Source of the DNA: an uncultured Nitrososphaerota archaeon
GTDB lineage: Archaea > Thermoproteota > Nitrososphaeria > Nitrososphaerales > Nitrosopumilaceae
Assembly: GCA_963701075.1 (NCBI GenBank)
Contig: OY969559.1
Location: 1,550,540 to 1,582,539, forward strand
Reading direction: 5' to 3'
DNA length: 32,000 nt
Made by a program: the position numbers and the translations under genes. The notes beneath the pieces were generated by a model. That model worked only from the letters and a program-made list of their open reading frames with translations, was not told where the DNA came from and did not search any database. Positions 11,955-31,048 of this stretch are shown one piece after another (positions within the stretch are counted from its first letter, which is position 1; every line of letters starts with the position of its first letter).

Positions 11955-12029
11955 CCCATGAATATTACGTAGTTATAGTATATGAGATTTACACATCGTC
12001 AAAATATCATGAAAATAAAAAAGTAGGAG

Positions 12030-13469: not shown

Positions 13470-13529
13470 GCAGGTTACAAAAATCTAAAAATACGTCCAA
13501 TCTTCAGACAGGCAAATTTCAAGGCGGTT

Positions 13530-13685
13530 CTACCTATCAGACATGCTCCACTTTTCTTCTTGATTCATCTTTAATATTTTTTCAATTGGGATATCGCTGT
13601 GGTCTTTGCTTAGATGTGTTGTATATTCAAGAAGACTAGTGAATCGTTTCTTGCAGATAGGACAATCTTTCTCAAATCCAGCCAT
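13530..13685 (-). CDS. C2H2 zinc-finger mini-protein (51 aa), below the ORF-track cutoff
   Basis: Hand translation: MAGFEKDCPICKKRFTSLLEYTTHLSKDHSDIPIEKILKMNQEEKWSMSDR. This gives C-x2-C-x12-H-x5-H with the conserved F and L of classical C2H2 fingers. An A/T-rich TATA-like stretch lies upstream. Confidence 0.6.
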   Translation of the reverse strand: MAGFEKDCPICKKRFTSLLEYTTHLSKDHSDIPIEKILKMNQEEKWSMSDR

Positions 13686-13837
13686 TGTCATTTTAAAAAT
13701 AGGGATTTTTCTATTTTAATGTATGCTAGATTATCACATCTATAATTTTCTAAACTTTTCTTCCATATGATTTTGCCCAATAATTTTCATTGGTACTCAA
13801 AGATAACAACTAGACAAGCAAATCACTTGAATGCTAG

Positions 13838-15007
13838 CTATTTGAGGCGTAATTTTGAAATTGCAGTTATGATATTTTTCTGAATTCTCTTGTCATACAT
13901 GCTTGGTATGATGTGGTCATAGTGAAGTTCCCTATTTGAGACCGTTTTTGCTATTGCCACTGCAGTAACAAGTAATAATTTCATCGTTATTTTGTTTATT
14001 CTTTTATCCAGTATTGCCCGCATAAGGTGAGGAAATACTAGGGCATTGTTGACTTTGTTAGGATAAAGATAACTCCCAGTTGCTACAATTTTTGCACCAG
14101 CTGCTTTTGCTATCTCAGGTTTTATCTCAGGATCGGGGTTGGTAAGTGCAAAAACTATTGGATCTTGGTTCATCGTTTTTATAATTTTAAAAGTGAGCAG
14201 ATTTTTCTTTCCTGATACACCGATGAAAACATCAGCATTTTTCAGTGCGTCACACAGCGAGCCTTTTTCTTTTTTTGGGTTTGTCATATCTCCGAGTTCT
14301 TTTTTGTATTTGTTCATATTTGCAGTTCGTCCCTTGTAAATTATGCCATCAGAATCTGTAACAAGTATATTTTTGCAGCCAGATGCAGCAAGTAATTTGC
14401 ATATACCATACCCTGCAGAGCCAGCTCCTGCCACTACCACCCTGATTGTAGAGAGTTGTTTTTTGGTGAGTTTTAACGAGTTTAGCAATGCGGAAAGCAC
14501 TACCACTGAAGTTCCATGCCTATCATCATGAAAGATTGGAATAGGCAGTGACTTTTCCAACTCGTCAGATATTTCCATCACTTTTGGAGATTCAATATCT
14601 TCCAGGTTTATGGCGCCAAATACAGGTTCAATTGCCTTGATTGTAGCAATGATTTCATCTTTCTTTGTGGTATCAAGACAGATAGGAAAAGCGCTTACAC
14701 CACCAAATTCTTGGTAAAGAACTGCCTTTCCTTCCATAACTGGCAATGCAGCATACGGGCCTATGTTTCCCAATCCAAGTATTCTTGTACCATCAGTCAC
14801 TATAGCTACATTATTTCCTTTGGAGGTAAGAGTATATTTTTTTTCAGGATGATGATAGATTTCTTTGCATACTGCCGCAACCCCTGGAGTATAGATTAGT
14901 TTTATCTCGTTTGATCTCAAATTCTTGATTTTTCCTGTAACAATTATCTTTCCTTTTAATTTCTTGTGTAATGCAAGTGCCTTCTTTGAGTTCTGATCAG
15001 AAATCAT
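13838..15007 (-). CDS. NAD(P)-dependent malic enzyme (oxaloacetate-decarboxylating malate dehydrogenase)
   Basis: LALHKKLKGKIIVTGK...IYTPGVAAVCKEI, DGTRILGLGNIGP..ALPVMEGKAVLY, NLEDI..P, FHDDRHGTSVVVLSALLN and VVAGAGSAGYG are all hallmark short-form malic enzyme motifs. Confidence 0.92.
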   Translation of the reverse strand: MISDQNSKKALALHKKLKGKIIVTGKIKNLRSNEIKLIYTPGVAAVCKEIYHHPEKKYTLTSKGNNVAIVTDGTRILGLGNIGPYAALPVMEGKAVLYQEFGGVSAFPICLDTTKKDEIIATIKAIEPVFGAINLEDIESPKVMEISDELEKSLPIPIFHDDRHGTSVVVLSALLNSLKLTKKQLSTIRVVVAGAGSAGYGICKLLAASGCKNILVTDSDGIIYKGRTANMNKYKKELGDMTNPKKEKGSLCDALKNADVFIGVSGKKNLLTFKIIKTMNQDPIVFALTNPDPEIKPEIAKAAGAKIVATGSYLYPNKVNNALVFPHLMRAILDKRINKITMKLLLVTAVAIAKTVSNRELHYDHIIPSMYDKRIQKNIITAISKLRLK

Positions 15008-15071
15008 ACATTATCACTCTAATAGCTGCTTTGTAAGTCTTTTAGTCATTCTTGCAAAATAATCCTAACTC

Positions 15072-15629
15072 TTACCGGTCGTTATCGCATGCATATTTTT
15101 TATCAAGTCTATATATGATAGTATTTTCTGTTAAATCAAATTTTACATTGCACCCAAGCTCCTTGAATGCTGCTTCATAAAATGCCTTGAAATGTTTGGA
15201 CCATTTAATTCCCATGTCATGTCTCATGATGAACTTGATTTCGTTTTTACCTTCGATCTGGGTGAAACTAAAGCCGGCAGCCTTTGCCCTGCCACGTAAA
15301 ACAGATATCCATTCCCAGACATCAGACGTTCCTTTCATTGCAAACAACATATCTCTTGAAACATGTTTTCCTTTTTCCTCTGCAATGCTCAGAATTACCT
15401 TATCATCGAGTTTATCAAACCAAGACATGAGAAGCGCTTTTGGCACAGGCACCCACCCAGATTTTGATGCCACAATATCCCAATCTACCGCATGTGCAAG
15501 GAGTTGGTTCACCAGTGCGTTAAGGGTGATTCTCTCAAATGTGGCATGAGATTTGATCTTGTCTAGAACTTCCTTGTCTATCCTAAATGTTACTGTCTTA
15601 TTCTTCTCAATTGTGGATTCGTCATTCAT
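15072..15629 (-). CDS. ribbon-helix-helix (CopG/Arc-like) regulator with an uncharacterised C-terminal domain
   Basis: KTVTFRIDKEVLDKIKSHATFERITLNALVNQLLAHAV fits the beta-alpha-alpha RHH pattern. Confidence 0.55.
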   Translation of the reverse strand: MNDESTIEKNKTVTFRIDKEVLDKIKSHATFERITLNALVNQLLAHAVDWDIVASKSGWVPVPKALLMSWFDKLDDKVILSIAEEKGKHVSRDMLFAMKGTSDVWEWISVLRGRAKAAGFSFTQIEGKNEIKFIMRHDMGIKWSKHFKAFYEAAFKELGCNVKFDLTENTIIYRLDKKYACDNDR

Positions 15630-15819
15630 GACATTGTTTTTGTTGATTGCGTACTGATTAATATTGCGAAACAGAGTTCACTTGCACTCATTTGTGACAT
15701 AACCAAATACGTCATTGTATAGAGACACCCGACGTTCTAGTAGCACCTACAGCTTCTGGCATTATGTGTATTTGTGGCATCTCTGGCTAGTTCAAGCGGC
15801 TGTACTAGCACACTACAGA

Positions 15820-16263
15820 TTAGTTGTTTCTAATTCCAGGAGTAACAATATTGTATTTGTCTAGTTGATTTTTTATGATAGCAAGGAATTGTTTAGAATT
15901 AATCTTTTGAATCAAAGAAGTAGGATCTACACCCTTCTTTGCTATGACAATCATTATGTTTGAAAAGATCGGTATTGTTATGAATTTTAATTTGCTTCTT
16001 TCTGTTGTGATATAGTTAACAGATCCTAATTCTTCATCAAAATCGGCATGCATCGAGTGTTGCAATCTTATGCCCATACACAGCATCTCCATCTTTTCTC
16101 TGCTCAAAGTGAGATTTTTTGGTGCTTGCTCTAGCATTCTGCCTTGAGCATTTATTATTCCAACATATTCCAAGTTATATTTTAACAACGAATCAAGATG
16201 ATCTGCTAAATCTTTCTCTTCCACATAATCATATGTCACTCTTATGCTAAAAAATGAGAGCAA
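15820..16263 (-). CDS. hypothetical protein (possibly Roadblock/LC7-like)
   Basis: TTG start. The fold guess rests only on the size and the pattern YVGIINAQGRMLEQ...; weak. Confidence 0.4.
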   Translation of the reverse strand: MLSFFSIRVTYDYVEEKDLADHLDSLLKYNLEYVGIINAQGRMLEQAPKNLTLSREKMEMLCMGIRLQHSMHADFDEELGSVNYITTERSKLKFITIPIFSNIMIVIAKKGVDPTSLIQKINSKQFLAIIKNQLDKYNIVTPGIRNN

Positions 16264-16328
16264 TATTATGCACTAGCTTGCAAGACTGGAAATGCTAGAC
16301 AACAAAACTGTATGTCAAAATATCAAGA

Positions 16329-17714
16329 TCATTCAACATGATGTTGTACTATCAGCTGGTCGTAGAATCTTACTGACTTGATATTGACAAACTCTAACAT
16401 GCCATATCTTGAGAGTTCTCTTCCAAAGCCACTTTGTTTTACTCCACCAAAAGGTATTCTTGGATCAGAGACAACAACGTTGTTTACTGCAACAAGCCCA
16501 GATTCGACCAATCTTGACAGCTTGTCAGCTTTATCCAGATCCTGAGTCCAAATACTCCCACCAAGGCCATATTGTGACCCGTTAGCAAGGCGTATTGCCT
16601 CCATTTCATCTTCTACGATAGTTATTGGTGCAACGGGTCCAAATGCCTCCTCATTAGCCATACGCATGTTGGTGGTAACATTACCAAGTATTGTTGGACT
16701 GTAAAAGTATCCCTTGCTGTTCATCCTCTTACCACCAGTTAGTACTTCAGCACCTTTGTCTACGGCATCTTTTACAAGTTCTTCTATTTTTTCAAGACCT
16801 TCTGAATTTACCATAGGTCCTATGTCAGTATCTTCAGATGTTGGGTCTCCCACTCTGAGTTTCTCCGTTTTTTGAACAAACTTTTCAATAAATTCTTTGG
16901 CAAGATTTTTTGTTACAAAAAATCTTTTTGATGCAATACAGCTTTGTCCACAGTTGATAAAACGCCCTTTGACTGCACCTGTGGATGCCTTTTCAGCATC
17001 TGCGTCCGAGCACACTATGAAAGGATCGCTGCCGCCAAGTTCTAGGACGCATTTCTTTATTTTGGAGGTAGCCCGTTGTGCCACTTTTGCGCCAGCCATG
17101 TTACTGCCAGTAAATGTCACAGCGTTAACAGAATCTATGAGCTGCTCTGCCATGGAAGAATCAGCAATCGCGGTTTGGAAGACACCTTCAGGCAATCCTG
17201 CTTTCTTGAACATATTTTCAATTTCTATACCGCACTGCATTGTGGCACTAGCCGGCTTTAGAACAACAGTATTCCCAGCCATCAACGAAGGAGCAGCAAA
17301 TCTCAAAGCTTGCCAGTATGGAAAATTCCATGGCATTATACTTCCAATTACCCCTATTGGCTCAAACGCAATGAAGCTCTTTCTAGCATCAGTGTTTACG
17401 GATTCATCATGAAGAAAGGTTCCACTGTTATCGGCATAAAACTCCATAACCCAAGCACACTTTTCAACTTCGGATAACGATTCCTTGATTGCCTTACCCA
17501 TCTCTTTTGTTGCAGTAAGTGCCAACTGTTGTTTGTTTTTTCGCAAAACATCAGCAAAAATATTGATAAAATCAGATCTTCTTTTGATATCTCTTTTCCA
17601 ATCAGAAAAGGCCTTTTTTGATTTTTCTATTTTTTTATCCAGTTCGTCTTTTGTTATAACATCGTATTGTGCCAAAACCTCCTCTGTTGTAGGATTAACT
17701 GTCTTGATTACCAT
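16329..17714 (-). CDS. NAD(P)+-dependent aldehyde dehydrogenase (succinate-semialdehyde dehydrogenase-like)
   Basis: MVIKTVNPTTEEVL start (internal ATG at 17714 preferred over the tracked 17780). WNFPYWQ, VLKPAS, FTGS, ELGGSDP and the catalytic FINCGQSCIASKR. Confidence 0.9.
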   Translation of the reverse strand: MVIKTVNPTTEEVLAQYDVITKDELDKKIEKSKKAFSDWKRDIKRRSDFINIFADVLRKNKQQLALTATKEMGKAIKESLSEVEKCAWVMEFYADNSGTFLHDESVNTDARKSFIAFEPIGVIGSIMPWNFPYWQALRFAAPSLMAGNTVVLKPASATMQCGIEIENMFKKAGLPEGVFQTAIADSSMAEQLIDSVNAVTFTGSNMAGAKVAQRATSKIKKCVLELGGSDPFIVCSDADAEKASTGAVKGRFINCGQSCIASKRFFVTKNLAKEFIEKFVQKTEKLRVGDPTSEDTDIGPMVNSEGLEKIEELVKDAVDKGAEVLTGGKRMNSKGYFYSPTILGNVTTNMRMANEEAFGPVAPITIVEDEMEAIRLANGSQYGLGGSIWTQDLDKADKLSRLVESGLVAVNNVVVSDPRIPFGGVKQSGFGRELSRYGMLEFVNIKSVRFYDQLIVQHHVE

Positions 17715-17821
17715 ACCAGGGTAAAATAAGGCGTCGTATATAATCCTCCAACTGCCTGGTTGCAAGCGAGTAATTTGCAATTTTTGAAGCTTTTAATATT
17801 TTAATCAATAAGGCATACCAT

Positions 17822-18919
17822 ATGCAATCTCTCTCCTCTCGTGAAAAGCAAAACTTGCAGTTTGAGACAGTTCTCATCTTGCAGGGAGGAGGATCTCTCG
17901 GGGCTTATGAATGCGGGGTCTACAAGGCCTTATACAGACATGGAATCAAGTTCGACATAGTAGCAGGAACTTCTATTGGAGCAGTTAATGCGTCTATTAT
18001 TACAGGAAGTAGAAGCGACGATCCGGCAAAGGCATTGGAGGAGTTTTGGCTGGATTTGGCAGAAGGTGTAACTTCCTCTAGCTTGCCTGACAAGATACGA
18101 CCATACTTTGCATCAATGTATTCTGCAGTTTTTGGAAACCCCAAAATGTTCTTTCCAAAATGGTTTATTCCAAGTGCAGATTATTTTATGCCGTATTTTT
18201 GGCAATACATTTACGACATAGCCCCCCTCAAGAAAACATTAAACCAGTATGTCGATTTTCAAAGGATTCAAAGCTCCGATAAGCCAAGACTCATAATAAC
18301 ATCCACCGATGTCCAAAATGCAAAGCCTTCTGTTTTTGATAGCGAGTATGACAATATCGAAGCAGATCACGTACTTGCCAGTGCAGGGTATCCATTTTAT
18401 GGCATATCATGGACCCAAAAGAGCGGAAAATATCTCTGGGATGGGACTCTTTTGAGCAACACACCTCTTCGTGAAGTGATAAATGCTTCACCAAAACACG
18501 ACAAGAAAGTTTACGTGGTAGATCTCTTTCCAAAAAATCAGCCCGAGCTTCCAAATAACATGTTTGAAGTCTGGCACAGAGCAAGAGACATCATACATAC
18601 TGATAAGACAGAGCATAACATACACATGTCAAGGATAATCACTCGCTACCTGAAATTAATACGAGAGATGCATGAAATTCTTAGTTCTTCCACACTTGAC
18701 GAAAAGGCCAAATCCAAACTTGCACTGTTAGAACTAGAATATCACAAGCTTGCCTCAGAACGAGGTAGCATCATAGAGCAGATAGTAAAAATACAACGTC
18801 ATGAACATGCTCATTTTCTCTTAGAAGATGCAGATTTTTCAATTGCTACAATAAGAGAATTGATAGAAAAAGGCGAAAGAGATGCAAAGGAAGCGCTCGC
18901 TACAAACAGCGTGGAATAG
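17822..18919 (+). CDS. patatin-like phospholipase/esterase (candidate PHA depolymerase)
   Basis: LQGGGSLGAYECGV (oxyanion GGGxxG), GTSIGAVNA (GxSxG nucleophile) and WDGTLLSNTPL (catalytic Asp DG motif). Confidence 0.85.
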   Translation: MQSLSSREKQNLQFETVLILQGGGSLGAYECGVYKALYRHGIKFDIVAGTSIGAVNASIITGSRSDDPAKALEEFWLDLAEGVTSSSLPDKIRPYFASMYSAVFGNPKMFFPKWFIPSADYFMPYFWQYIYDIAPLKKTLNQYVDFQRIQSSDKPRLIITSTDVQNAKPSVFDSEYDNIEADHVLASAGYPFYGISWTQKSGKYLWDGTLLSNTPLREVINASPKHDKKVYVVDLFPKNQPELPNNMFEVWHRARDIIHTDKTEHNIHMSRIITRYLKLIREMHEILSSSTLDEKAKSKLALLELEYHKLASERGSIIEQIVKIQRHEHAHFLLEDADFSIATIRELIEKGERDAKEALATNSVE

Positions 18920-19023
18920 TAGATCGCAAGATAGAGTAGAAAAACAGACCAAAGACAATTTACACAGTGTCAAATGATTATAACGAAAAAGACTTATCAT
19001 GCATGCTTTCTCCCTACATATAG

Positions 19024-19622
19024 TTGCAAACCAAGTTTGCAGATGTCTGGGGGCACAAAGTAAGATACTTGGAGGAAGGCAAGTCAGGTAAAACGATCCT
19101 GCTTATCCATGGATTAGGCGGTTCTGCAGAGAGATGGTTAAAAGTCATCCCTATTTTGAGCCCAAAGTACAGGGTTATCGCCCCCGATATGATCGGTTTT
19201 GGATATAGCGACAAGCCTTCAGTTGACTATACAATAGAATTTTTTGGCAAGTTCCTATCTGCTTTTATTGATACATTAGGCCTAAAAACAGCGATTCTGG
19301 TAGGTACCTCTCTTGGAGGGCAGATTGCAGCAGAATGTACTAACACCAATCATGCCATAGAAAAGTTAGTCCTTGTTTCCCCTTCTGGGGCCATGAAACA
19401 GTCTACTGCAGCTGTAGACGCATACATGATGGCTGCTCTCTATCCCAATCATGCAAGTGCTAGAACTGCATTTGAGATGATGGCCAATTCAGGTACAGTT
19501 GACGAGTTTACAGTATCTGATTTTGTAAAAAGAATGTCCATTCCAAACGCAAAGCTTGCGTTTATCTCTTCAGTCCTAGGAATAAAGAACTCGAAGATAG
19601 ATGAAAGTTTGCAGAAGATCTG
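19024..19622 (+). pseudogene. alpha/beta hydrolase paralog 1, N-terminal fragment (nucleophile half), cut by the inversion junction
   Basis: Collinear with the 23131..23919 paralog (HGLGGSAERW, GTSLGG, LYPNH) up to ...IDESLQKI. The rest of the tracked ORF (CMFVGKRDSIF...) is antisense to a phasin-like N-terminus. Confidence 0.8.
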
Positions 19623-19760
19623 CATGTTTGTAGGTAAAAGGGATTCTATCTTCTCAATTACATTAGTGGCATTAGTGTGCATAATGTCACAAACAGAAAT
19701 AGTTGACTTGTTCTCAACAGTATCAGGATTTGTAGGCTGTGGTCTCTTTTGCGCCATCAC
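19623..19760 (-). pseudogene. phasin-like paralog 2, N-terminal fragment (46 codons)
   Basis: MMAQKRPQPTNPDTVENKSTISVCDIMHTNATNVIEKIESLLPTNM. It joins in frame to 22691..23014 if 19623..22690 is flipped. The remainder of tracked ORF 19449..19760 is antisense hydrolase. Confidence 0.6.
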
Positions 19761-19967
19761 CTGCTATACTATGAGGTATCTTTTAATGATTTGTGGGTGA
19801 GGTGTGTTAAGATTCGAACTGGGATAAAACCACTCCTTTTGAATATCCGTACAGCAACTATTCCTTCTTTGTTAATCGTTATCTAATATCGATGAGACAC
19901 TCTGTGATCTTTATCTCAATACAAAGTAGCAATCTCTATAAGATGTGAATGTTACTTAATACACTTA

Positions 19968-20546
19968 ATGAGTTATACGGAAGAGTATAAGAAATCATTA
20001 GGGTATTACAAGCATGTCTCCCTATTTTGGACAGATTTGATATCTCTGATGTCAAGTAGGCCACAATCGCTCATGTCCACAGGACCCTTTAGGAAACTAG
20101 GTGTTAATGCCAAAAAGGCCAGTGCTGAAATGATAGAGATCAACCAAGGGCTGGCTGAATTTAATGTAAGACTTGGTGAATATTATAAACAACTCATAGA
20201 TACGTGGAATGAGGCACAAAAACAATTTAGCAAAAAAGTGCCAGAGATTCCAACCGATACGGAACATCTTGACGCTACCAAGCGTATCTGGATAGACATA
20301 TTCGAAAATTACTTTACAAGACTGTTTGATTCTCAGGAATTTGCAGAAAACTTTGGAAAACTAGTATCAAGTGAACTTGATCTTGCAAAACACTGGAATA
20401 ATGTAGCATCGCTCATGTTGGAGACTGTTAACATGCCAACAAAGAAAGAAATTGACGAGCTGTATAAAGAATTACACTTGTTGCGAAAAAGAGTTGCCAA
20501 ACTTGAAAAAATATCTAATCATGGAGGAAATGGAAATGGAAAGTGA
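19968..20546 (+). CDS. phaE: class III PHA synthase subunit PhaE
   Basis: C-terminal PhaE box NMPTKKEIDELYKELHLLRKRVAKLE. Located immediately upstream of phaC and overlapping it. Confidence 0.8.
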   Translation: MSYTEEYKKSLGYYKHVSLFWTDLISLMSSRPQSLMSTGPFRKLGVNAKKASAEMIEINQGLAEFNVRLGEYYKQLIDTWNEAQKQFSKKVPEIPTDTEHLDATKRIWIDIFENYFTRLFDSQEFAENFGKLVSSELDLAKHWNNVASLMLETVNMPTKKEIDELYKELHLLRKRVAKLEKISNHGGNGNGK

Positions 20547-21606
20547 ACTTAGAATAGACCCCCGTATATTGGAGGAGTTTCTACAAATGAACAGAAATAT
20601 TCTTGATGCGCCAAAGTTGGTTGCGGCGCCAGATGAGATCAGCATGGAAATGACCCCATACGATGTTGTGTATTCTGAAGGAAAGATGAGATTATTACAT
20701 TTTAATTCTTCCCAGAAAAAACAGGTAAAAACTCCTCTTTTGATTACATATGCTTTGATAAACAGATATCATATCCTAGATATTCATCCGCAAAAAAGCT
20801 GGGTGAGAAATATGTTAGAACAAGGTCTAGATGTATATTTGATAGATTGGGGAACCCCGACTACTATGGATAGATATCTTGGTTTTGATGATTATGTAAA
20901 TGGCTACATGGACAACTGTGTAGACTTTATTCTTAACGAGTCAGGTGTTGATAAGGTCTCAATGCAAGGATACTGTACGGGAGGCACTCTTGCTACAGTT
21001 TACGCGTCACTGTATCATGAAAAAATAAAAAACTTGATTTTAACGGCTCCAGTAATTGACGGGAGCAGGGATAGTACAGTGGTAGCAAACTTGGCAAAAC
21101 ATATGGATGTGGACAAGATGGCTGATATCGTAGGAAATGTACCTCCTGAATTCATGTATTACGTGTTCTCTATTCTCAAGCCCTTCGAACAGGGCCTTGA
21201 AAAATATGTCCAATTCTTTAAAAATATTCACAACAAAGAGTATGTCGAAAACTTTATCCGAGTGGAAAAATGGCTAAGCGATACCCCGCCTATTCCGGGC
21301 GAACTTTTCAGGGAATGGGTAAAGAATGTCTACCAGGACAATTTACTGATTAGGAACCAAATGCATGTATCGGGCAGGCAGATAAATCTCAAAAATATAT
21401 CCATGCCTGTCTTTACTCAAGTGGCAGTGGGAGATCATCTGGTATCTCCAGAATGCAGTATGCCAATACACTATGCGGTGTCTAGTGAAGACAAAACGTT
21501 GAGAATGTATGCTACCGGGCATGTAGGTATGATAGCAAGCTCATTTTCTCAAAAAAAGGTACTACCAGAACTAGGTCAATGGATAAAAGAAAGATCTGAA
21601 AAATAA
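20521..21606 (+). CDS. phaC: class III poly(3-hydroxyalkanoate) synthase PhaC
   Basis: Lipase-box variant MQGYCTGGTLAT (G-x-C-x-G catalytic Cys). WLSDTPPIPGELFREWV, and GHVGMIAS (His). The ATG at 20521 gives 361 aa, the usual class III size. The tracked 20452 start lies inside phaE. Confidence 0.9.
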   Translation: MEEMEMESELRIDPRILEEFLQMNRNILDAPKLVAAPDEISMEMTPYDVVYSEGKMRLLHFNSSQKKQVKTPLLITYALINRYHILDIHPQKSWVRNMLEQGLDVYLIDWGTPTTMDRYLGFDDYVNGYMDNCVDFILNESGVDKVSMQGYCTGGTLATVYASLYHEKIKNLILTAPVIDGSRDSTVVANLAKHMDVDKMADIVGNVPPEFMYYVFSILKPFEQGLEKYVQFFKNIHNKEYVENFIRVEKWLSDTPPIPGELFREWVKNVYQDNLLIRNQMHVSGRQINLKNISMPVFTQVAVGDHLVSPECSMPIHYAVSSEDKTLRMYATGHVGMIASSFSQKKVLPELGQWIKERSEK

Positions 21607-21629
21607 AAAAAGAGTTAGATACTAACTAA

Positions 21630-22046
21630 CTAATTTCTTGTTGGTGTCCATGCTGAGAACCAAGATTGCAGTATGTTTGCATTCATATCAGAAAACGCTT
21701 TTGTGTTGTCGTTGAATGTCTTTACGTTTTGTCTGATTGCATCAATTGTTGCTAGTACTGCTTTGCTTTGGACAGAACCTGTCTTGACTATCTCTTCTGT
21801 TGCATCATTAACTATTTTGAAGTATGCTGATGGTACATTTGTAGATAGACCTGTTCTTGAAGTATATTCATGTTGCATTGAAATTGCATTCTCGATTGTA
21901 TTTTTACATGCTGTTGCATATTCTTGCTGTAGATTGGTTACTGCTTGTAAACACTGTGCAACATTCTTCTCTGCTTCATCAAAGCATCGGTTAACATTCT
22001 GCTTGTACACTGCAAAGATCTCTTTTGTCTCTGTTGTCTTACTCAT
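21630..22046 (-). CDS. phasin-like protein (PhaP-like, helical, 138 aa)
   Basis: Helical Q/N/K/E-rich protein, translationally coupled (ATGA) to the AbrB-type gene upstream. This matches the phaR-phaP arrangement known from haloarchaea. The assignment is by context. Confidence 0.55.
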   Translation of the reverse strand: MSKTTETKEIFAVYKQNVNRCFDEAEKNVAQCLQAVTNLQQEYATACKNTIENAISMQHEYTSRTGLSTNVPSAYFKIVNDATEEIVKTGSVQSKAVLATIDAIRQNVKTFNDNTKAFSDMNANILQSWFSAWTPTRN

Positions 22047-22462
22047 TCTTTCACCTCCTCTTTTTGTTTTCTCCTTTCGACCGGTATGACAATTACTTGT
22101 ACAAGGTCTTCTTCCTTGATTCCAAGAGCTTCTCGTTCTGCTTCCGGTATCGAAATGCGACCATTACTTCCTACTGACGTTTTGAAGGTACCCCATGATA
22201 GGAGCGAGGGTAGTAGCTGTGAAGGGTTGAACATGTTGTACATTCCCTTTGACTGCATATCTGTAAAATTTTGGACAAAATCGGACTGTGCTTTTGTAGT
22301 CTTGTTTGTTATTTCTTTTAGTGTTTCAAGCGGATTGATTTGGTTGTTTCTGCTCATCATCTCGCCAAAAGTCTTCATGAAATCCATCTGTGCCTTTCCA
22401 CTTCGTTGTATCCACTCGTGGAACATCTCAGTCGGATCGTATTGGTTGTTATTACCAGTCAT
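22043..22462 (-). CDS. AbrB/SpoVT-domain regulator (PhaR-like)
   Basis: C-terminal SNGRISIPEAEREALGIKEEDLVQVIVIPV is a looped-hinge-helix AbrB motif. Haloarchaeal PhaR is an AbrB-domain protein encoded next to phaP/phaEC. Confidence 0.65.
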   Translation of the reverse strand: MTGNNNQYDPTEMFHEWIQRSGKAQMDFMKTFGEMMSRNNQINPLETLKEITNKTTKAQSDFVQNFTDMQSKGMYNMFNPSQLLPSLLSWGTFKTSVGSNGRISIPEAEREALGIKEEDLVQVIVIPVERRKQKEEVKE

Positions 22463-22487
22463 TGGTAATAGTTACCAGTAACTGGTA
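22452..22487. promoter_or_regulatory. four alternating TTACCA(GT)/TGGTAA half-sites forming nested palindromes across the PhaR-like start codon
   Basis: TTACCAGT cat TGGTAA tag TTACCAGT aa CTGGTA. It includes the perfect 15-mer palindrome TACCAGT-A-ACTGGTA (22473..22487). The ATG is at 22462-22460. Confidence 0.4.
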
Positions 22488-22488
22488 T

Positions 22489-22689
22489 TTAACTCTTGGC
22501 CAAAATGAGTCTTGAATCTAGGAACTCTAGTATGGATTCGGAGAATATGTCTGGCTTTTCCACATGTGGCAAGTGACCGCAGTCGTCTAACTCTAGGAAC
22601 TTGCAATTCCTAATTGAGGAGACAAATTGCTTAGCATGCTCAATGGGTATCACTCTGTCTTCTTTTCCCCACACCAATAATGTGGGCAC
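22489..22689 (-). pseudogene. alpha/beta hydrolase paralog 1, C-terminal fragment (Asp/His half)
   Basis: VPTLLVWGKEDRVIPIEHAKQFVSSIRNCKFLELDDCGHLPHVEKPDIF aligns without gaps to VPTLLIWGKEDKMIPIEYSKEFVSSIPGCDFVVMNGCGHTPYEEKPNEF of the intact paralog. It has no N-terminal half of its own. Confidence 0.8.
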
Positions 22690-22690
22690 C

Positions 22691-23014
22691 CAGATGTATT
22701 CGGATTTTTACACAGAATACCTACATTCATTACAAGATCTTTTTGGAGCATGCTATATAGCAGAAAACGAAATTTTATCCAAGATGGGAATTGACCAGAA
22801 AGATCTCCAGTCCTTTGACACATATACCAAGACAGCTACCAGATCAACAATCGTTCAAATTGAAATGGCTAACAATATTCAAAAAACATATTTACAAACT
22901 CAGATATCAGCCATTAAAACACTTGATGAGTACATACGTCTTACACTTGATTATTATTCTAGGATGCTTTCCATGTCTCTCAACTCTCCTTTTCAGAAAA
23001 TTTCAAACCACTAG
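22691..23014 (+). pseudogene. phasin-like paralog 2, C-terminal fragment
   Basis: QMYSDFYTEYLHSLQDLF...IQKTYLQTQISAIKTLDEYIRLTLDYYSRML has the same helical architecture as 21630..22046. The upstream part of tracked ORF 22601..23014 is antisense to the hydrolase fragment. Confidence 0.6.
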
Positions 23015-23130
23015 TTCCTTTTTCTCAAGACAATGCCTTTAGTTGTAGTTAGATTCAATAAATTGCCAAAATTGGTAAATAATATAGCTCGACAAAAACT
23101 TATGTAACGATTAAATTGACCAAATTATAC

Positions 23131-23919
23131 ATGCAAGAGAAATATATCACAGTCAACGGAAATAAGATAAGGTATATTGAAGAAGGAGACTCGAAAAATA
23201 CCATAATTTTACTTCATGGCTTAGGAGGAATAGCAGAGAGATGGTTACCTGTAGTTCCGCTTCTGAGTAAAAAATACAGAGTGATTGCACTTGATTTGAT
23301 CGGATACGGTCAAAGTGATAAACCACAGGTAGATTACACACCAGAGTTCTTCAGAGATTCTGTACTTGGCTTTCTAGAAACATTGTCATTGCAGAAGACT
23401 GTTATGGTGGGTACATCTCTCGGAGGGGAGATAGTGGCGGAATGTGCAGCTACACAAAATCCTTTGATTAAAAAAATAGTTATGGTGGCACCGGCTGGCA
23501 TAATGAAGAGTCACACTCCTGTTCTTGATGCATATACAATGGCTGCACTATATCCAAATCACGAATCTGTAAAAATAGCATATCAGATGATGATGGGAGA
23601 AAATAAAGAGATAAGTCCCCAGTCAGTTGAAAACTTCATTTCGAATATGACTAGACCCAACTCCAAGATGGTGTTTCTTTCCACACTTTTAGGGATGAAA
23701 AACTCTCCTGTCATAACAGAGAAACTAAAGCTAATCAAAGTACCTACGCTTCTCATATGGGGAAAGGAAGACAAGATGATTCCAATAGAATATTCCAAAG
23801 AGTTTGTGAGCTCAATTCCAGGTTGCGATTTTGTAGTTATGAATGGATGCGGACATACGCCATACGAAGAAAAACCCAATGAATTTTCAAAACTAGTGCT
23901 TGACTTTTTATCCAGGTAG
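23131..23919 (+). CDS. alpha/beta hydrolase paralog 2 (intact; MhpC/BphD-like fold)
   Basis: HGLGGIAERW, GTSLGG nucleophile elbow, GKEDKMIP (Asp) and GCGHTPYEEKP (His). The ATG at 23131 is preferred because MQEKY aligns with MQTKF of paralog 1. Confidence 0.85.
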   Translation: MQEKYITVNGNKIRYIEEGDSKNTIILLHGLGGIAERWLPVVPLLSKKYRVIALDLIGYGQSDKPQVDYTPEFFRDSVLGFLETLSLQKTVMVGTSLGGEIVAECAATQNPLIKKIVMVAPAGIMKSHTPVLDAYTMAALYPNHESVKIAYQMMMGENKEISPQSVENFISNMTRPNSKMVFLSTLLGMKNSPVITEKLKLIKVPTLLIWGKEDKMIPIEYSKEFVSSIPGCDFVVMNGCGHTPYEEKPNEFSKLVLDFLSR

Positions 23920-23937
23920 GGGAGTCATGATTTTTCC

Positions 23938-24282
23938 TTGATAAAAATAAAAAGGGTTTACGAGTCCTCATCTGAAGAAGACGGTTTTAGAATTCTCATC
24001 GATAGACTGTGGCCGCGTGGATTATCAAAAGAATCTGCGCAGATAGATGCATGGTTAAAAGATATAGCGCCTAGCGATAATCTCAGAAAGTGGTTTTCTC
24101 ACGATCCAAAAAAATGGATCGAGTTCAAGAAAAGATACTATAAAGAACTCGAGGAGAAAAAAGACATAGTTTCAAAGATCAGGTTGTTTGAAAAAGAAAA
24201 GAGAATGGTGACATTTCTCTATTCTGCAAAAGATAAAGAACACAATAACGCGGTTTTTCTACAAGAATATATGCAAAAATAG
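23938..24282 (+). CDS. DUF488 (YeaO-like) family protein
   Basis: IKIKRVYE...DGFRILIDRLWPRGLSKE...DAWLKDIAPS..LRKWF.HDP.KW.EF..RY..EL is the DUF488 signature. TTG start. Confidence 0.8.
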   Translation: MIKIKRVYESSSEEDGFRILIDRLWPRGLSKESAQIDAWLKDIAPSDNLRKWFSHDPKKWIEFKKRYYKELEEKKDIVSKIRLFEKEKRMVTFLYSAKDKEHNNAVFLQEYMQK

Positions 24283-24619
24283 ATCAAGATCAGATACTAA
24301 GCAAGCACATACTAAATCAAAATAAACCAATTATAGACAAAATAATTATTTTGTACTTGTTATCTTACACAATATTCATGTATCATGCCGATAATTTTAG
24401 ATACATGGGTAGCAAACAAAGCGATGAGTTTCTTGACGAGGAACCAGAAGATAGCGAAGAAGACACAGAATACCTAAATGATGAATTCGAGGAAGACGGT
24501 TCAAAAGACAAATGAGTGCCACAGCACATTAGAAACATATCAGAGATTTACCAAAACGGTACATTTGACTGATGAATCATTCGTTCTAATCACTTAAAAG
24601 ATAGACTGACTTTTAGATT

Positions 24620-24874
24620 GTGTTGAGTGAATCAGAGTATAATTCTCAAATTGAGAAAATTTCATTGATGATTACTGAGGATAACATGTCGCTTGATGAA
24701 CAAGATCCCATGAAACTTCAAAAATATTACGACTTTGTGAAAAAACATTTTCACTTGGATGGCGAACCTGTCATTCAATTAGTTAACGAAGCATTCTTGT
24801 ATCTAAAACTGAAAAAATCAGATTCCATAGACCCTCTCCAGCATGGAGATGAGTTTGGAGCAGGCTTTAGCTGA
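24620..24874 (+). CDS. hypothetical protein (84 aa)
   Basis: GTG-initiated ORF with a plausible composition and no motif. Confidence 0.4.
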   Translation: MLSESEYNSQIEKISLMITEDNMSLDEQDPMKLQKYYDFVKKHFHLDGEPVIQLVNEAFLYLKLKKSDSIDPLQHGDEFGAGFS

Positions 24875-24901
24875 ATTAAGAGTTTTTCACAATATACCAG
24901 T

Positions 24902-25405
24902 CTACAAACCAAACTTGAACTTGGTCTTTGAGGAAATTGCAATTATTGATAAAATTGATACAGCAAGAATAACAAATGACAGAGAACCAAATTCTGGAAG
25001 AACTTGTGTTCCTATTATTTCAATTCTTTCAGTGCCATTAGTGAATCCGATTGAAAGAGTTCTATCAGTGCCTGTTTTGTTTTCATGAAAGTCAGTATAA
25101 GTATCATCCACAAGAACAATGAACTGATCATCGTTTGCACCAACCTTTGCATCAATTAGAGTTCTAGGCAGGTCTATAATCAAATTCCCATCGCTTGTAG
25201 AATTTAGTGAAATTACAAGCGACGTTTCATGAGTGCTAATCAGCATATCGTTTATCGTTGCACCTGTTATTGTGTAGTTAACGTTGTAAGATTGCCCACC
25301 TGCAGGATTCTTTATGACATAGATATTCGTCGATTGTGCAAAGGACGGCGCACTTGCCAAAGAGATCACAAATACAGCCAAAATCAAATATGGTTTCCAG
25401 TGCAC
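24902..25405 (-). CDS. secreted PEFG-CTERM protein
   Basis: Signal ...LASAPSFA, a beta-rich body, and C-terminus VLPEFGSLSFVILAVSILSIIAISSKTKFKFGL. GTG start. Confidence 0.8.
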   Translation of the reverse strand: MHWKPYLILAVFVISLASAPSFAQSTNIYVIKNPAGGQSYNVNYTITGATINDMLISTHETSLVISLNSTSDGNLIIDLPRTLIDAKVGANDDQFIVLVDDTYTDFHENKTGTDRTLSIGFTNGTERIEIIGTQVLPEFGSLSFVILAVSILSIIAISSKTKFKFGL

Positions 25406-25461
25406 AAGAGGTTTGACATTGACCTGTATTTTTCCTTTGCGAGCAATTCGACCTCCAGATT

Positions 25462-25576
25462 GTTCCAGAATTCAGAGTCTGTTGTTTTGACTCTCACATA
25501 CTCAGTTTTGGCTGTCATAGCAATGACTAGTAAAACTAGACGAGGTTTTGATCTGAACACTTACACCAATTTTTAA
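25462..25576 (+). pseudogene. orphan, frameshifted PEF-CTERM tail remnant
   Basis: gtt cca gaa ttc (VPEF, 25462..25473), then after one extra base ESVVLTLTYSVLAVIAMTSKTRRGFDL. A stop codon lies only about 14 codons upstream of the PEF, so there is no protein body. Confidence 0.45.
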
Positions 25577-25590
25577 TTCAAGTTATTATA

Positions 25591-25878
25591 GTGCGTTTTT
25601 GCCTTCTAGTAATGAAAGACTTGTCTAATCCAGTCCTGATAAAAAAATTAAAGGAAAAAATAAGCCAGAACGAGAACCGCCTACAGAGATTGATGATCGA
25701 GTATGAAAACATTTGGGAAGAAACCGGCCTAGATCCAAGAGATTCTTCCTACCTTGTAGAAAAAACCATGCGTTTTGAGATTGCACAAAAAAATATTACT
25801 ACCATATTTTCCGCCTTCAAGGATTTAATTGAAAATTACAAGAATCTCTGCCAAGAACTAGAAAAAATAGATGAATAA
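25591..25878 (+). CDS. hypothetical coiled-coil protein (95 aa)
   Basis: GTG start and a heptad-like charged sequence. The stop overlaps the ATG of the HD-domain gene (TAATG). Confidence 0.5.
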   Translation: MRFCLLVMKDLSNPVLIKKLKEKISQNENRLQRLMIEYENIWEETGLDPRDSSYLVEKTMRFEIAQKNITTIFSAFKDLIENYKNLCQELEKIDE

Positions 25879-26222
25879 TGCAAATAATAGAATCTGCCGA
25901 GTTATTTGCCAAGGAAAGACATGCTGGCAGGATAAGAAATGACAATACTCCTTACTTGGATCATTTGAAAGGAATGGTAAACAGACTGAAAAATCTTGGG
26001 ATATCAGACCAAGAAGTACTTGCAGCAGCATGGCTACATGGCATCATGGAAGAAACCAACACGACATTTGATGAAATTGATAAAAGGTTTGGCAGCAGGA
26101 TAGCGGTTCTTGTTCTTGCATCACACAAAGACAAAAGCCTTCCAAGGGATCAGGTAGAAAAACAGTATATCAAGCAATTAAAGGAATCTCCCATTGAAGC
26201 GAAGCTAATCAAGACTTTGTGA
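25878..26222 (+). CDS. HD-domain protein (RelA/SpoT-type hydrolase fold), truncated by a frame break
   Basis: ERHAGRIRNDNTPYLDHLKGMV and AAAWLHGIMEETNTTFDEIDKRFGSRIAVLV follow the SpoT/Mesh1 HD pattern (AH.GQ.R..G.PY..H; LHD..EDT; FG..VA.LV), but with HD replaced by HG. Confidence 0.7.
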   Translation: MQIIESAELFAKERHAGRIRNDNTPYLDHLKGMVNRLKNLGISDQEVLAAAWLHGIMEETNTTFDEIDKRFGSRIAVLVLASHKDKSLPRDQVEKQYIKQLKESPIEAKLIKTL

Positions 26223-26427
26223 TATTTCAACAAATCTCAAAGATTTAAAAAACGCCACATGGTCAAAGACCAAAAAAACAAAACAAGTTAAAAAGAATCT
26301 ATATTATCTCAATATAATAAAGTTAGAACTATCAAATAATAAAACCCAGTATCCAGAGATTCAAAATATCGTAAATGGCATAAATGAAGTAATTTCAACA
26401 CATGGTCAAAGACCAATTGTGTTATAA
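26215..26427 (+). pseudogene. continuation of the HD-domain gene in the +1 frame
   Basis: LCDISTNLKDLKNATWSKTKKTKQVKKNLYYLNIIKLELS... The segment K-L/T-C-D-I-S-T-N-L aligns with the KLADRLHNM helix of SpoT-type HD domains. Confidence 0.55.
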
Positions 26428-26436
26428 TTAGAAGAC

Positions 26437-26628
26437 TTGTCCAATATAAGAAGAGATATCAATGAATGCCCCATAACACATACAATGGTAGAAGAAAAAA
26501 AGAAAATAAAGTCAAACACGGAGGATGAGTACAACAATGCCTTGGCCTCTGACGATCCAACCAAAATATCAAAGGACGCCCAAGAGACATTAGCACGAGA
26601 GGCAATCAAGAAATTCAAGTCTTTGTGA
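26437..26628 (+). CDS. hypothetical small charged protein, doubtful
   Basis: TTG ORF (internal ATG gives MVEEKKKIKSNTEDEY...). No motif. Confidence 0.3.
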   Translation: MSNIRRDINECPITHTMVEEKKKIKSNTEDEYNNALASDDPTKISKDAQETLAREAIKKFKSL

Positions 26629-26653
26629 CATACCCTATCGCTTTTATCTGGGA

Positions 26654-27094
26654 TTGAATACCTATCATTTATTGTCTGATAACTTGGTAAATTCTGTTCA
26701 ACAGATCATCATTCTTGGCAAAGGAGACCGCCTAAGATTAGAGTACATTCTCGAACTCTTAACAAAAGGCAAAACTTTGCCCACATCGGATCAAAAATAT
26801 TTGGAAAGCATCATTCCCTTGTATCTAGGCACACAAGATGCGGAATCTCTACAAAAGCACATGGAAAACGTGATAGATACACTGCACGGAGAGATCCGGA
26901 CACTCAATGAGAGACTTTCAAGGCTTGAAAGAAAAGGGTTTGAGAAATATGTTGGTAAAAAAGCAATCTTTTTCTTTGCTACTGTATTTGTGGGCTGGCA
27001 TGTATTTCAGAGTCTATACAATGTCTTTTCTTGGACCATATTTGCCTTCCAACATAGAACAATATCTATTTCCACTAAACATGTTGGCAAATAG
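26654..27094 (+). CDS. hypothetical coiled-coil protein with a C-terminal TM segment
   Basis: TTG start at 26654. MNTYHLLSDNL...HGEIRTLNERLSRLERKG, then AIFFFATVFVGWHVF. It may continue in the +1 frame (next feature). Confidence 0.55.
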   Translation: MNTYHLLSDNLVNSVQQIIILGKGDRLRLEYILELLTKGKTLPTSDQKYLESIIPLYLGTQDAESLQKHMENVIDTLHGEIRTLNERLSRLERKGFEKYVGKKAIFFFATVFVGWHVFQSLYNVFSWTIFAFQHRTISISTKHVGK

Positions 27095-27284
27095 TTTTAA
27101 TGCCAACTCTTTGGTCTGGCTAGTTTTCATTTTCATGGCAGCAGCATGGCCATTTATTGGTGCTGCGTATCTGGCAAAATTCATAAAATCACACAAGAAT
27201 GTTTCATGTACCGATAAGACGATAAATCGCTGCAATATACAAGAAACTGCAGGTAAGTTAGAAGGATGGGGTTGGAATATCTAA
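27030..27284 (+). other. possible +1-frame continuation of 26654..27094 encoding a second TM helix
   Basis: LGPYLPSNIEQYLFPLNMLANSFNANSLVWLVFIFMAAAWPFIGAAYLAKFIKSHK. Without it, 280 bp of convergent intergenic space is left unexplained. Confidence 0.35.
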
Positions 27285-27375
27285 CTTTATCCTACAGTCT
27301 CTATGAGCTGTGCTGATAATATGTTATTAAGAGGATAGCATTAAGTTGCAACTATTTGCAATCTGTATTTCCAAC

Positions 27376-28101
27376 TCACTTTAATGGAAATTGCAATTTT
27401 GCCTTCGCTGAAATAATTATGATAGAAACCATAGAGAAAATAAGAACTGCTGATACAACAGATCCAAACTCTGGCACAGTAGGCTGCGGTCCTACATAAA
27501 ATGTGTATACGGATCTCTCAAAATCCGCTGCATTTTGATTAAAACCATTCGGTGATGAGACCATAACAAGGAAATACTGCCTGCCATCCTTTAACCAGAA
27601 GGAAAATTCTTCAGTAATTGGACTATTCTGCGTAGCTTGGTTCCCTAAGGCAGTTTGATTCTCTGCAACAACTGCTTGAATCACAAAGCCGTCAGAAAAC
27701 CTCTGAATATTTTTTTGATATACAACATATTTTGATGTATCAAATAGCTTTGCAATGGCAAGATCTAGAATCTGATCATCTGGGATCGATAATACCGCGT
27801 CAGATATGGGTTTACCTTGATAAAAGTAAATTGCAAAGTTGGCCGTGCTGTTTTGATTCTCATTTTCAAATACTGCCAATGTTGAATCTGACTGATTGGT
27901 CTGTGGCACTGGAATCCACCCAAGCGGAGGCAAAATGGAAAAGTTGTACGCAGGATCAGTATATGTATTGGTTTGAATGTTTGCAGGGTTAAACATAGGA
28001 GTTAACGAACTCTGAGTAGTGTTTCCTTCTGCCCATGCAGGATTTGTCATCAAGAAAGTAAGGGTAACGCCCAACAGAATAGAGCAAAAAACTAATCTCA
28101 A
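27376..28101 (-). CDS. secreted PEFG-CTERM protein (possibly PsbP/DUF1795-like fold)
   Basis: TTG start. Signal ...LMTNPAWA, FSILPPLGWIPVP, and C-terminus TVPEFGSVVSAVLIFSMVSIIIISAKAKLQFPLK. Confidence 0.75.
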   Translation of the reverse strand: MRLVFCSILLGVTLTFLMTNPAWAEGNTTQSSLTPMFNPANIQTNTYTDPAYNFSILPPLGWIPVPQTNQSDSTLAVFENENQNSTANFAIYFYQGKPISDAVLSIPDDQILDLAIAKLFDTSKYVVYQKNIQRFSDGFVIQAVVAENQTALGNQATQNSPITEEFSFWLKDGRQYFLVMVSSPNGFNQNAADFERSVYTFYVGPQPTVPEFGSVVSAVLIFSMVSIIIISAKAKLQFPLK

Positions 28102-28183
28102 TTTAAAAGAATTTCTAGTATCTACTATAAGAAGTATGATGCACGATAATTTTGTTTTTTAAGATGGGGATTACATCAGACGT

Positions 28184-28846
28184 TCATGAAATAATTCTGT
28201 AGCATAGACAGCCGTCTCTTATTTCAGGTTTGGAAAAAGAAACAGGGTATTCTTTGACTCTGCCATCACCGTCTGGAATCAGTTTATTGTAAGGATAGTA
28301 TGATAGGGATTGTGGATCTGACGGATCATCGCCTTGGCCAAACAAGAGCTGTGAGATTTCAACATGAAATCTTATCGGATAAGGAAAATTTCCGCTCTTG
28401 TTCCACCATTCTATACCAGTGAAATGGTTTGCGCCCTCGAAAATAAACGACCTATCGTCCACGATAAAATCAAATTTCTCAGATTTGTTTACGGTTATGT
28501 CCTTTAGAATATATGTGATGGACTTGGTAGCCGAATTCATAATTATCTGGCGCATGTAGGAATGATCTACTTCTGGTCTTATCATAGTGAATTCATGCTG
28601 ATTTATTCCTCCAAATATTGCATGAAACTTGCCGTCGTCATTAAAAGAACAGATAAGATTAAGCTCAAGTGGCACGTTTTGTCTGTTAAACAACTCTAGC
28701 AGATATAGCATCCATGACTTGTCAGGTATTTTGTTTCCAAGATCTGCGTCTAATGTTATGATATCAGATATAGAAATAACACGTGGAGGAAAAAACACGT
28801 TTCCCCTATCTTCAATATGGCAGAAAGAGCCTACCCAAAAATGCAC
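28184..28846 (-). CDS. hypothetical cytoplasmic protein (220 aa)
   Basis: Long ATG ORF with no signal peptide and no recognised motif. Confidence 0.55.
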   Translation of the reverse strand: MHFWVGSFCHIEDRGNVFFPPRVISISDIITLDADLGNKIPDKSWMLYLLELFNRQNVPLELNLICSFNDDGKFHAIFGGINQHEFTMIRPEVDHSYMRQIIMNSATKSITYILKDITVNKSEKFDFIVDDRSFIFEGANHFTGIEWWNKSGNFPYPIRFHVEISQLLFGQGDDPSDPQSLSYYPYNKLIPDGDGRVKEYPVSFSKPEIRDGCLCYRIIS

Positions 28847-28982
28847 ATAGGTAAATAAGATTTGATACTATTTTTCATTTGTTATATCGTAACATGTTTT
28901 AAAATTGATTATGTGTAAAAGAAATACTCTGTTATGACATGTAATATGCGATTGAGCAGACTTTTTATCCTATCTTGGTTGC

Positions 28983-30954: not shown

Positions 30955-31048
30955 ATTGCAATTACAAAACAGATCTGCCTAATAAGAAACTACCCTGTCA
31001 TTTTGAGAAATATGTCTGCAGAATCTAGCAAGATGTGAAAAATTTGCT

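Follow-up and report, generated by a model that had tools for sequence, protein, structure and literature searches.

By what event did two neighbouring genes of an archaeal polyhydroxyalkanoate (PHA) locus come to be cut in two, with the missing part of each now on the opposite strand at the far end of the same segment? The locus lies in a 32,000-nucleotide stretch of DNA (contig OY969559.1 of assembly GCA_963701075.1, positions 1,550,540 to 1,582,539; hereafter the window, with coordinates counted from its first letter) from an uncultured Nitrosotalea lineage (Nitrosopumilaceae), a member of the ammonia-oxidising archaea (AOA). The two genes are hyd1, coding for an alpha/beta hydrolase, and phs2, a working name for the second split gene, which specifies a conserved protein of roughly 152 aa; between their breakpoints stand the PHA synthase pair phaE-phaC and two small genes, termed phaR-like and phaP-like. 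The reading that we favour, at a probability of roughly 85%, is a single, recent and non-programmed inversion of 3.07 kb, produced by illegitimate recombination in this one lineage and now fixed there. Such an event is an ordinary one-off rearrangement of a known kind and involves no new mechanism or system.

The inverted segment and its reversal in silico

The inverted segment occupies positions 19623..22690, or 3.07 kb. Read directly from the sequence, the left junction joins ...GCAGAAGATCTG to CATGTTTG, with ATCTG at 19618-19622, and the right junction joins ...GGGCACC to CAGATGTATTC, with CAGAT at 22691-22695; an in-silico flip with ends anywhere between 19618/22695 and 19623/22690 gives an identical product. 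An earlier note, made from the sequence alone, had held that the open reading frame (ORF) starting at 19024 follows the hydrolase up to ...IDESLQKI (nt 19620), that the missing C-terminal part (..VPTLLVWGKEDRVIPIEH...CGHLPHVEKPDIF..) sits on the minus strand from 22689 to 22489, and that flipping the segment restores both frames. These claims hold: beyond 19620 the ORF continues through 59 nonsense codons to 19800, the coordinates of the displaced part are correct, and the flip of 19623..22690 yields a 266-aa alpha/beta hydrolase ORF from 19024 together with a 153-aa conserved-protein ORF. The restored hydrolase covers profile positions 2-245 of the 245 of Pfam Abhydrolase_1 and is 55% identical over 260 aa to its paralog hyd2 at 23131..23919, and the restored 153-aa protein can be aligned with intact homologues over its whole length, junction included (..ESLLPTNMQ before it, MYSDFY.. 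after it). Alignment of both re-flipped proteins to homologues, which had been proposed as a check, is thus end to end. The breakpoints fall at hyd1 codon 200 and phs2 codons 46-47, and neither reconstructed gene has further stops or frameshifts. The same note had called the second gene a phasin; its split stands, with a start-less body from 22691 (+) and an N-terminus at 19760 to 19623 (-), but the phasin label finds no support in the sequence.

Gene order in relatives and polarity of the change

A PhaC scan of one genome per prokaryotic species recovered 80 related loci, all from Nitrosotalea, Nitrosopumilus or other Nitrosopumilaceae, the best PhaC matches among them reaching 96-100% protein identity. 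Gene order in these loci was mapped by tblastn of eleven gene pieces. In the orientation of the window, the common order is aldehyde dehydrogenase (-), patatin (+), hyd1 (+), phaR-like (+), phaP-like (+), phaC (-), phaE (-), phs2 (+), hyd2 (+) and DUF488 (+). The hyd1 halves are contiguous in all 21 loci in which both were found, the phs2 halves are contiguous in 37 of 37, and not one of the 80 species-representative Nitrosopumilaceae loci is inverted. At the nucleotide level, blastn of the window against close relatives returns three blocks, with breaks at 19618-19620 and 22690/22691; against the relative L004 these are 10713-19620 (-), 19618-22690 (+) and 22691-31787 (-) in window coordinates. 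As the relatives are uniformly uninverted and the blocks break at the junctions, the state of the window is the derived one, and against each of the relatives examined the 3.07-kb segment is truly inverted. The gene order that the flip had been predicted to restore proves, by tblastn and blastn against the relatives, to be exactly the ancestral one, and the comparison with related genomes proposed alongside that prediction found a single arrangement throughout. The inversion itself is confined to one lineage of 99.9-100% identity, a distribution that fits a single event and monophyly.

One contig in the ancestral orientation, L093 (JGI 3300086352), could be compared with the window at 16967-19620 and 21731-22690. 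Its identity to the window rises from ~90% to ~98% at ~19500, 120 bp left of the inversion junction, a step that speaks for homologous exchange between Nitrosotalea lineages inside hyd1. That inter-lineage recombination occurs, and that identity climbs from ~90% in the left flank to ~98% in the core, would also suit an import of the core segment from another Nitrosotalea lineage, with an L093-like donor and integration in reverse. We hold such an import to be extremely improbable: the divergence step falls ~120 bp to the left of the junction and not at it, every pairwise comparison shows stronger conservation in the core than in its flanks, and the second junction lies beyond the end of the L093 contig.

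Recurrence of the junctions in other assemblies

Other copies of the locus were found by exact-protein lookup of the phaP-like protein, the phaR-like protein and the 258-aa broken hydrolase. The same junctions are present in at least eight independent runs or assemblies, at 99.9-100% identity to the window: one or both occur in the ENA assemblies ERZ25039544 (a 1.48-Mb contig) and ERZ25039501 (0.79 Mb), in the Logan assemblies SRR28061178, SRR28061621, SRR27973124, ERR10755947, ERR11593882 and ERR11523672, and in the NCBI metagenome-assembled genomes (MAGs) GCA_049677745.1 and GCA_049279315.1. Their contigs are collinear with the window across either junction or across both, and both are carried on single contigs in L081, L082, L083, L085 and L087. 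The 258-aa broken hydrolase is on record as an exact protein (P0001; MFZ1077877.1, MGB6786073.1) and is encoded on 10 contigs; the 123-aa phs2 remnant is likewise on record as an exact protein (P0002). The 21-mer immediately to the left of the breakpoint in the hydrolase had 0 matches in a scan of JGI metagenome contigs, though the JGI contig L093 contains it, the relevant samples being evidently absent from that collection.

The earlier note had left mis-assembly as an alternative, by which the inversion would exist only in a contig and not in the DNA of the organism. The window does have systematic long-read errors at AGCT sites, and restored genes free of further decay would be expected of an artefact as well. 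Against this, both junctions recur in at least eight other runs or assemblies, whose error profiles differ, and contigs free of the AGCT-site errors, short ones included, carry the same junctions. Several single contigs span both junctions, a 5-bp repeat is unable to mislead a k-mer or overlap assembler, and a balanced two-junction inversion would require two exactly reciprocal chimeras. Mis-assembly is excluded by the recurrence of the junctions, and we leave it next to no probability.

The AGCT errors merit a description of their own. Of the 13 sites at which other assemblies of the clone differ from the window, 11 lie at AGCT motifs (16237-16238, 26214 and 27013 in the window; 20799 in L085 and L087; further sites in L081 and L082), and these differences bear the signature of modification-dependent base-calling errors in long reads, typical of nanopore data. 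The pattern implies methylation of AGCT, which has been reported for Thaumarchaeota MAGs (10.1101/2021.05.08.442635). The 1-nt insertions in the window at 26214 and 27013 are artefacts that leave an HD-domain gene with 114 aa in place of the 182 aa found elsewhere and break a 203-aa gene into 26654..27094 and 26907..27284. A frameshift of PhaC in L085 and L087 was rejected as biology on the same ground, being a 1-nt deletion at an AGCT site.

Chemistry of the junctions

In the relatives, the hydrolase site reads ...CAGAAGATC ATG GTGCCC... and the phs2 site ...AACATGCAGATGTATTC.... At hyd1 codon 200 the re-flipped window has ATC-TG-GGTG, specifying Trp, versus ATC-AT-GGTG, specifying Met200, in the relatives. 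All of 16 related loci have ATG or another non-Trp codon at this site (Met, Thr, Ala and Lys in the distant ones), Met200 is found in 14 of 14 full-length members of the 90%-identity hyd1 cluster and Trp in none, and L093, the closest ancestral-orientation sequence, which is ~98% identical from ~19500 onward, reads ATCATGG. Since the hydrolase site is ATCAT in relatives and not ATCTG, three of the five base pairs probably pre-dated the event, and the pre-existing inverted microhomology was probably just the 3 bp ATC/GAT. The present 5-bp ATCTG/CAGAT would then be mostly a by-product of the junction, with a 2-nt patch copied from the phs2 site. A reciprocal exchange inside ATC/GAT, the bases common to both sites, predicts the left junction as it stands, and the right junction is off that prediction by one dinucleotide, with CA observed where AT is expected. 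The CAGAT of phs2 now stands at both ends of the segment in inverted orientation; because the 2-nt replacement is length-neutral, the in-silico flip brings back both reading frames, and with them a Trp that is not native. The 5-bp inverted microhomology that the earlier note had seen at the junctions is therefore there today, but its presence before the event is improbable given the ATCAT of the relatives. Taken together, the breakpoints are non-homologous, share ATC/GAT in the reconstructed parents and 5 bp at present, and have no longer homology.

Had the immediate ancestor carried ATC-TGG (Trp200) in hyd1, a clean reciprocal inversion at the 5-bp inverted microhomology then available would have left exactly the sequence now seen. 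Inverted identity of at least 5 bp arises at a random pair of breakpoints with P ~0.006, as opposed to ~0.06 for at least 3 bp, and codon 200 does vary among the more distant relatives (Met, Thr, Ala, Lys). This version is nonetheless unlikely, for Trp is present in no relative, be it the 16 loci or the 14 full-length cluster members; the change of ATG to TGG takes two adjacent substitutions where the divergence from L093 is ~2%, with a rough expectation of ~4e-4 for both; and the two bases that differ coincide exactly with the junction and are those of the other parental site. An exchange mediated by the CATG palindrome found at both sites was also considered and rejected, as it would require 3 bp to be inserted at one of the junctions and 3 bp to be deleted from the other.

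Switch or single event, and the age of the inversion

Several features of the locus are also those of a programmed, reversible inversion (phase variation) that would toggle hyd1 and phs2 via the ATCTG/CAGAT sites: a perfect 5-bp inverted repeat marks the ends of the segment, flipping puts both genes exactly back in frame, and the split genes are without decay. Site-specific invertible switches comprise the Hin-, Gin- and Fim-type invertons and the shufflons, whose recombinase sites are typically 10-30 bp or more. The window resembles these in having a discrete segment bounded by an inverted repeat, whose flip changes which ORFs are intact. It differs from them in the length of that repeat, now 5 bp and probably 3 bp before the event, in lacking a recombinase gene, in the single orientation observed, in its occurrence in one lineage, and in the junction: the exchange was not conservative, because the re-flip yields the non-native Trp200.

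The genomic data point the same way. Every assembly of the clone shows one orientation only. An exact search of ~15 billion proteins returned neither intact hyd1, with Trp or Met at position 200, nor intact phs2, but the broken 258-aa and 123-aa ORFs are present among them. In the 32 kb, no recombinase, integrase or transposase domain was detected with Pfam in any of the ORFs and called genes that were examined, several ORFs being without any family match, and no terminal inverted repeat longer than 5 bp was found at the segment ends. This agrees with what the earlier note had stated on both counts, here across the whole window, and with its preference for illegitimate recombination over a site-specific switch. 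With 0 of the 80 related loci inverted, too, we regard a programmed switch as very improbable; in each testable defining feature the event departs from a site-specific invertible switch. The longest nearby inverted repeat, a 16-nt pair of 94% complementarity at 19514-19529 and 22891-22906, lies outside the segment, 89 and 196 nt from the junctions. It was rejected as a recombination site, as it is off the ends and is matched in 11% of shuffles, which is not significant.

The ratio of nonsynonymous to synonymous substitution rates (dN/dS) relative to the related loci is 0.05-0.09 for hyd1 and 0.10-0.16 for phs2, and 0.05-0.09, 0.06-0.09 and 0.05-0.10 for the intact neighbours hyd2, patatin and phaE, at a synonymous divergence (dS) of ~0.25 to the nearest relatives. 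The values for the split genes are indistinguishable from those of the intact neighbours. From this and from the absence of decay it follows that nearly all of the divergence arose under selection and that the inversion is recent.

Candidate routes and comparison with known systems

The event started from the order patatin, hyd1, phaR-like, phaP-like (+); phaC, phaE (-); phs2, hyd2 (+). Breaks occurred at hyd1 codon 200 and phs2 codons 46-47, and the intervening segment was re-joined in reverse; the parental sites probably shared the 3-bp inverted identity ATC/GAT alone. Two hyd1 bases (AT) appear to have been lost at the junctions and replaced by two phs2 bases (CA/TG), as though a 5-nt, partly mismatched overlap, with 3 nt matched and 2 mismatched, had been resolved in favour of phs2. 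The candidate routes are microhomology-mediated joining of two breaks and replicative template switching. Among AOA, the complete non-homologous end joining (NHEJ) complex has been reported as acquired only in the ancestor of the Nitrososphaerales (PMC7554672), so that a Ku-independent route would be the more plausible one in Nitrosotalea.

Short-homology illegitimate recombination generates chromosomal inversions through joining of the microhomology-mediated end joining (MMEJ) type or through template switching, of the kind termed fork stalling and template switching or microhomology-mediated break-induced replication (FoSTeS/MMBIR). The present case is like such events in that its breakpoints lie in unrelated sequences with 3-5 bp of inverted identity, in that it comes without a recombinase or mobile element as a single event in one lineage, and in that the change at the junction is small and non-conservative (2 nt lost, 2 nt duplicated). 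Unlike typical end-joining scars, the 2-nt replacement is length-neutral and therefore neater. The junctions fit illegitimate recombination and not site-specific recombination.

Four considerations temper this account. Some of the datasets may not be independent: the ERZ assemblies were possibly built from the ERR runs, and the SRR runs are a possible source of the GCA MAGs. The result comes from assembled sequence, and the ancestral orientation could persist at low frequency within the sampled populations. The nearest relative of ancestral orientation is 2-6% divergent, which makes an unsampled Trp200 ancestor with a true 5-bp microhomology possible. Finally, the template-switch model leaves the right junction with 0 bp of microhomology.

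Gene content of the locus

The features of the locus are collected in Table 1.

Table 1. Features of the PHA locus and of the inversion junctions, in window coordinates
Feature	Coordinates	Strand	Remarks
Patatin-like phospholipase	17822..18919	+	Pfam Patatin E=9e-27; intact left neighbour outside the inversion; position kept in relatives
hyd1 5' fragment, codons 1-199	19024..19620	+	GTSLGG nucleophile motif present; catalytic-triad Asp/His missing; collinear with intact hyd1 of relatives up to 19620
258-aa chimeric ORF	19024..19800	+	199 hyd1 codons followed by 59 nonsense codons antisense through the phs2 5' end
Left junction ATCTG	19618..19622		ATC common to both parental sites; TG from phs2 (reverse complement of CA)
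phs2 5' fragment, 46 codons, GTG/ATG start	19623..19760	-	Apart from the gene body here; contiguous with it in 37/37 related loci
Divergent phs2/phaE intergenic region	19761..19967		Carried inside the inverted segment
phaE, class III PHA synthase subunit E	19968..20546	+	Intact; Pfam PHA_synth_III_E (PF09712) 51 bits, cutoff 25.7
phaC, predicted class III PHA synthase catalytic subunit	20521..21606	+	Intact; NCBIfam TIGR01836 428.3 bits, cutoff 365.3
phaP-like gene, 138 aa	21630..22046	-	Intact; identified only by position downstream of the AbrB-type regulator
phaR-like gene, 139 aa, C-terminal AbrB/SpoVT-type domain	22043..22462	-	Intact; near-threshold profile matches
hyd1 3' fragment, 67 codons	22489..22690	-	Region of the Asp (WGKEDRV) and the His (CGHLPH); joined to the 5' fragment in 21/21 related loci
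Right junction CAGAT	22691..22695		Native phs2 sequence; reverse-complemented copy at the left junction
phs2 3' fragment, 107 codons, native start missing	22691..23014	+	Called as an ORF of 123 aa that starts at an adventitious ATG, 22643
hyd2, intact hyd1 paralog (55% identity)	23131..23919	+	Outside the inversion

PhaC scores above the TIGR01836 cutoff and PhaE above that of Pfam PHA_synth_III_E, the combination expected of a class III PhaEC, and the PhaC of the window can with confidence be predicted to be a class III PHA synthase. The NCBIfam PhaE model gives 38 bits on the window protein, below its cutoff of 155. Exact lookup of PhaC from its first ATG found no match, because gene callers choose a later start, at 20536, giving 356 aa. 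The phaR-like protein comes just below threshold with both TIGR01439 (26.3 bits for a cutoff of 28.3) and Pfam MazE_antitoxin (21.6 bits for one of 24.7), and the phaP-like protein has no family match in Pfam or NCBIfam. The intergenic region between phs2 and phaE presumably holds the promoters of both genes, which would have moved with the segment. Upstream of the phaR-like gene (-), at 22440-22500, there are overlapping palindromes (TACCAGTCATTGGTAA / TTACCAGTAACTGGTA), and a TTAAATA box stands ~26 nt upstream of its ATG, likewise inside the inverted segment; palindromes and box could form the promoter and autoregulatory operator of the AbrB-type regulator.

A phasin identity of phs2 was rejected. 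The protein has no match in Pfam or NCBIfam and no relative in the PDB by profile search, and its comparison with the phaP-like protein gives a BLASTP E of 5.6 and a hhalign probability of 2.4% for the two family alignments; the phasin label is a contextual guess. In the relatives, phs2 is always divergent from phaE, and this conserved position is the sole support for its link to PHA. For hyd1 and hyd2, the best depolymerase model, NF050089, scores 108.7 bits and does not reach its cutoff of 300, and generic alpha/beta hydrolase models outscore it. The two are best predicted to be generic alpha/beta hydrolases.

The block of hydrolase, phaR-like and phaP-like genes convergent with phaC-phaE is kept from Nitrosotalea to Nitrosopumilus (loci L001-L080; window 17822-23919), and Nitrosotalea adds to it the patatin gene, phs2 and the second hydrolase. 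The PHA cluster of Haloferax mediterranei consists of phaR (AbrB-like), phaP, phaE, phaC and a patatin-like depolymerase. The window is like it in the class III PhaEC, in the small AbrB-domain protein followed by a ~140-aa gene, and in the nearby patatin-like gene; unlike it, the phaRP pair is convergent with phaEC, alpha/beta hydrolase paralogs flank the locus, and the small proteins are without a sequence-family match. The genes phaC and phaE have been reported from all sequenced AOA, including Nitrosotenuis uzonensis, as a partly overlapping pair, with canonical depolymerases absent (PMC3835317). The window shares this partial overlap of phaE and phaC; its conserved hydrolase and patatin neighbours, and the inversion, are not described in that account.

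Consequences of the double gene disruption

With hyd1 deprived of its Asp/His half and phs2 of its start and first 46 codons, both are pseudogenes. The phaEC and phaRP pairs are unbroken and have moved together with their upstream regions, and hyd2 and the patatin gene are untouched. PHA synthesis would accordingly be expected to be unaffected, and the loss to be tolerated or neutral. As AOA are reported to be without canonical depolymerases (PMC3835317), the conserved hydrolase and patatin neighbours are reasonable candidates for PHA turnover. In public MAG annotation, the 258-aa remnant (MFZ1077877.1, MGB6786073.1) is named "alpha/beta hydrolase", with no pseudogene flag.

By the inversion, a widespread soil clone has in effect undergone a natural knockout of two genes beside its PHA genes, namely one of two hydrolase paralogs and the conserved gene divergent from phaE. 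The inversion thereby offers a handle on the function of PHA-locus neighbours in a group said to miss the canonical depolymerases (PMC3835317). It also provides an archaeal inversion junction resolved to the base, polarised by 80 loci and seen in many datasets, from an AOA group that has not been reported to have Ku-type end joining.

An older inversion in the same window

A second inversion, at ~27478-30105, is shared by the window and L004, with breakpoints at ~27478-27484 and ~30097-30111 (region 27376-30377 in the window, 1605-3875 in L003, 348-2645 in L005 and 1414-4412 in L004). By this inversion, two divergently oriented genes for secreted proteins have traded their C-terminal modules. 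In the window and L004, a 224-aa secreted protein ends in a PEFG-CTERM anchor and an NHL beta-propeller protein in two IPSW..GIQYLI repeats; the tails are the other way round, which is the ancestral state, in L003, L005, L008, L009, L010, L011, L013, L017, L020 and L022. Both ORFs are intact in both states, the chimeras having been kept intact across at least 6% divergence. The breakpoints fall in Thr-rich linkers (ACT ACT G / ACA ACT G), with ~4-7 nt of similarity. This older inversion may be more interesting than that of the PHA locus.

A tentative, and in our estimate rather doubtful, proposal is that gene-internal short-homology inversions are a recurrent means of gene remodelling in the Nitrosotalea clade, with the case in the PHA locus as the destructive counterpart of viable domain swaps. 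Fixation of the PHA-locus inversion could then reflect selection for a changed PHA turnover, brought about by losing a putative depolymerase and a protein associated with the granules.

The PEFG-type C-terminal sorting signal, which is typical of Thaumarchaeota, ends two proteins of the window, encoded at 24902-25405 (-) and 27376-28050 (-) (..VLPEFGSLSFVILAV.. and ..TVPEFGSVVSAVLIF..).

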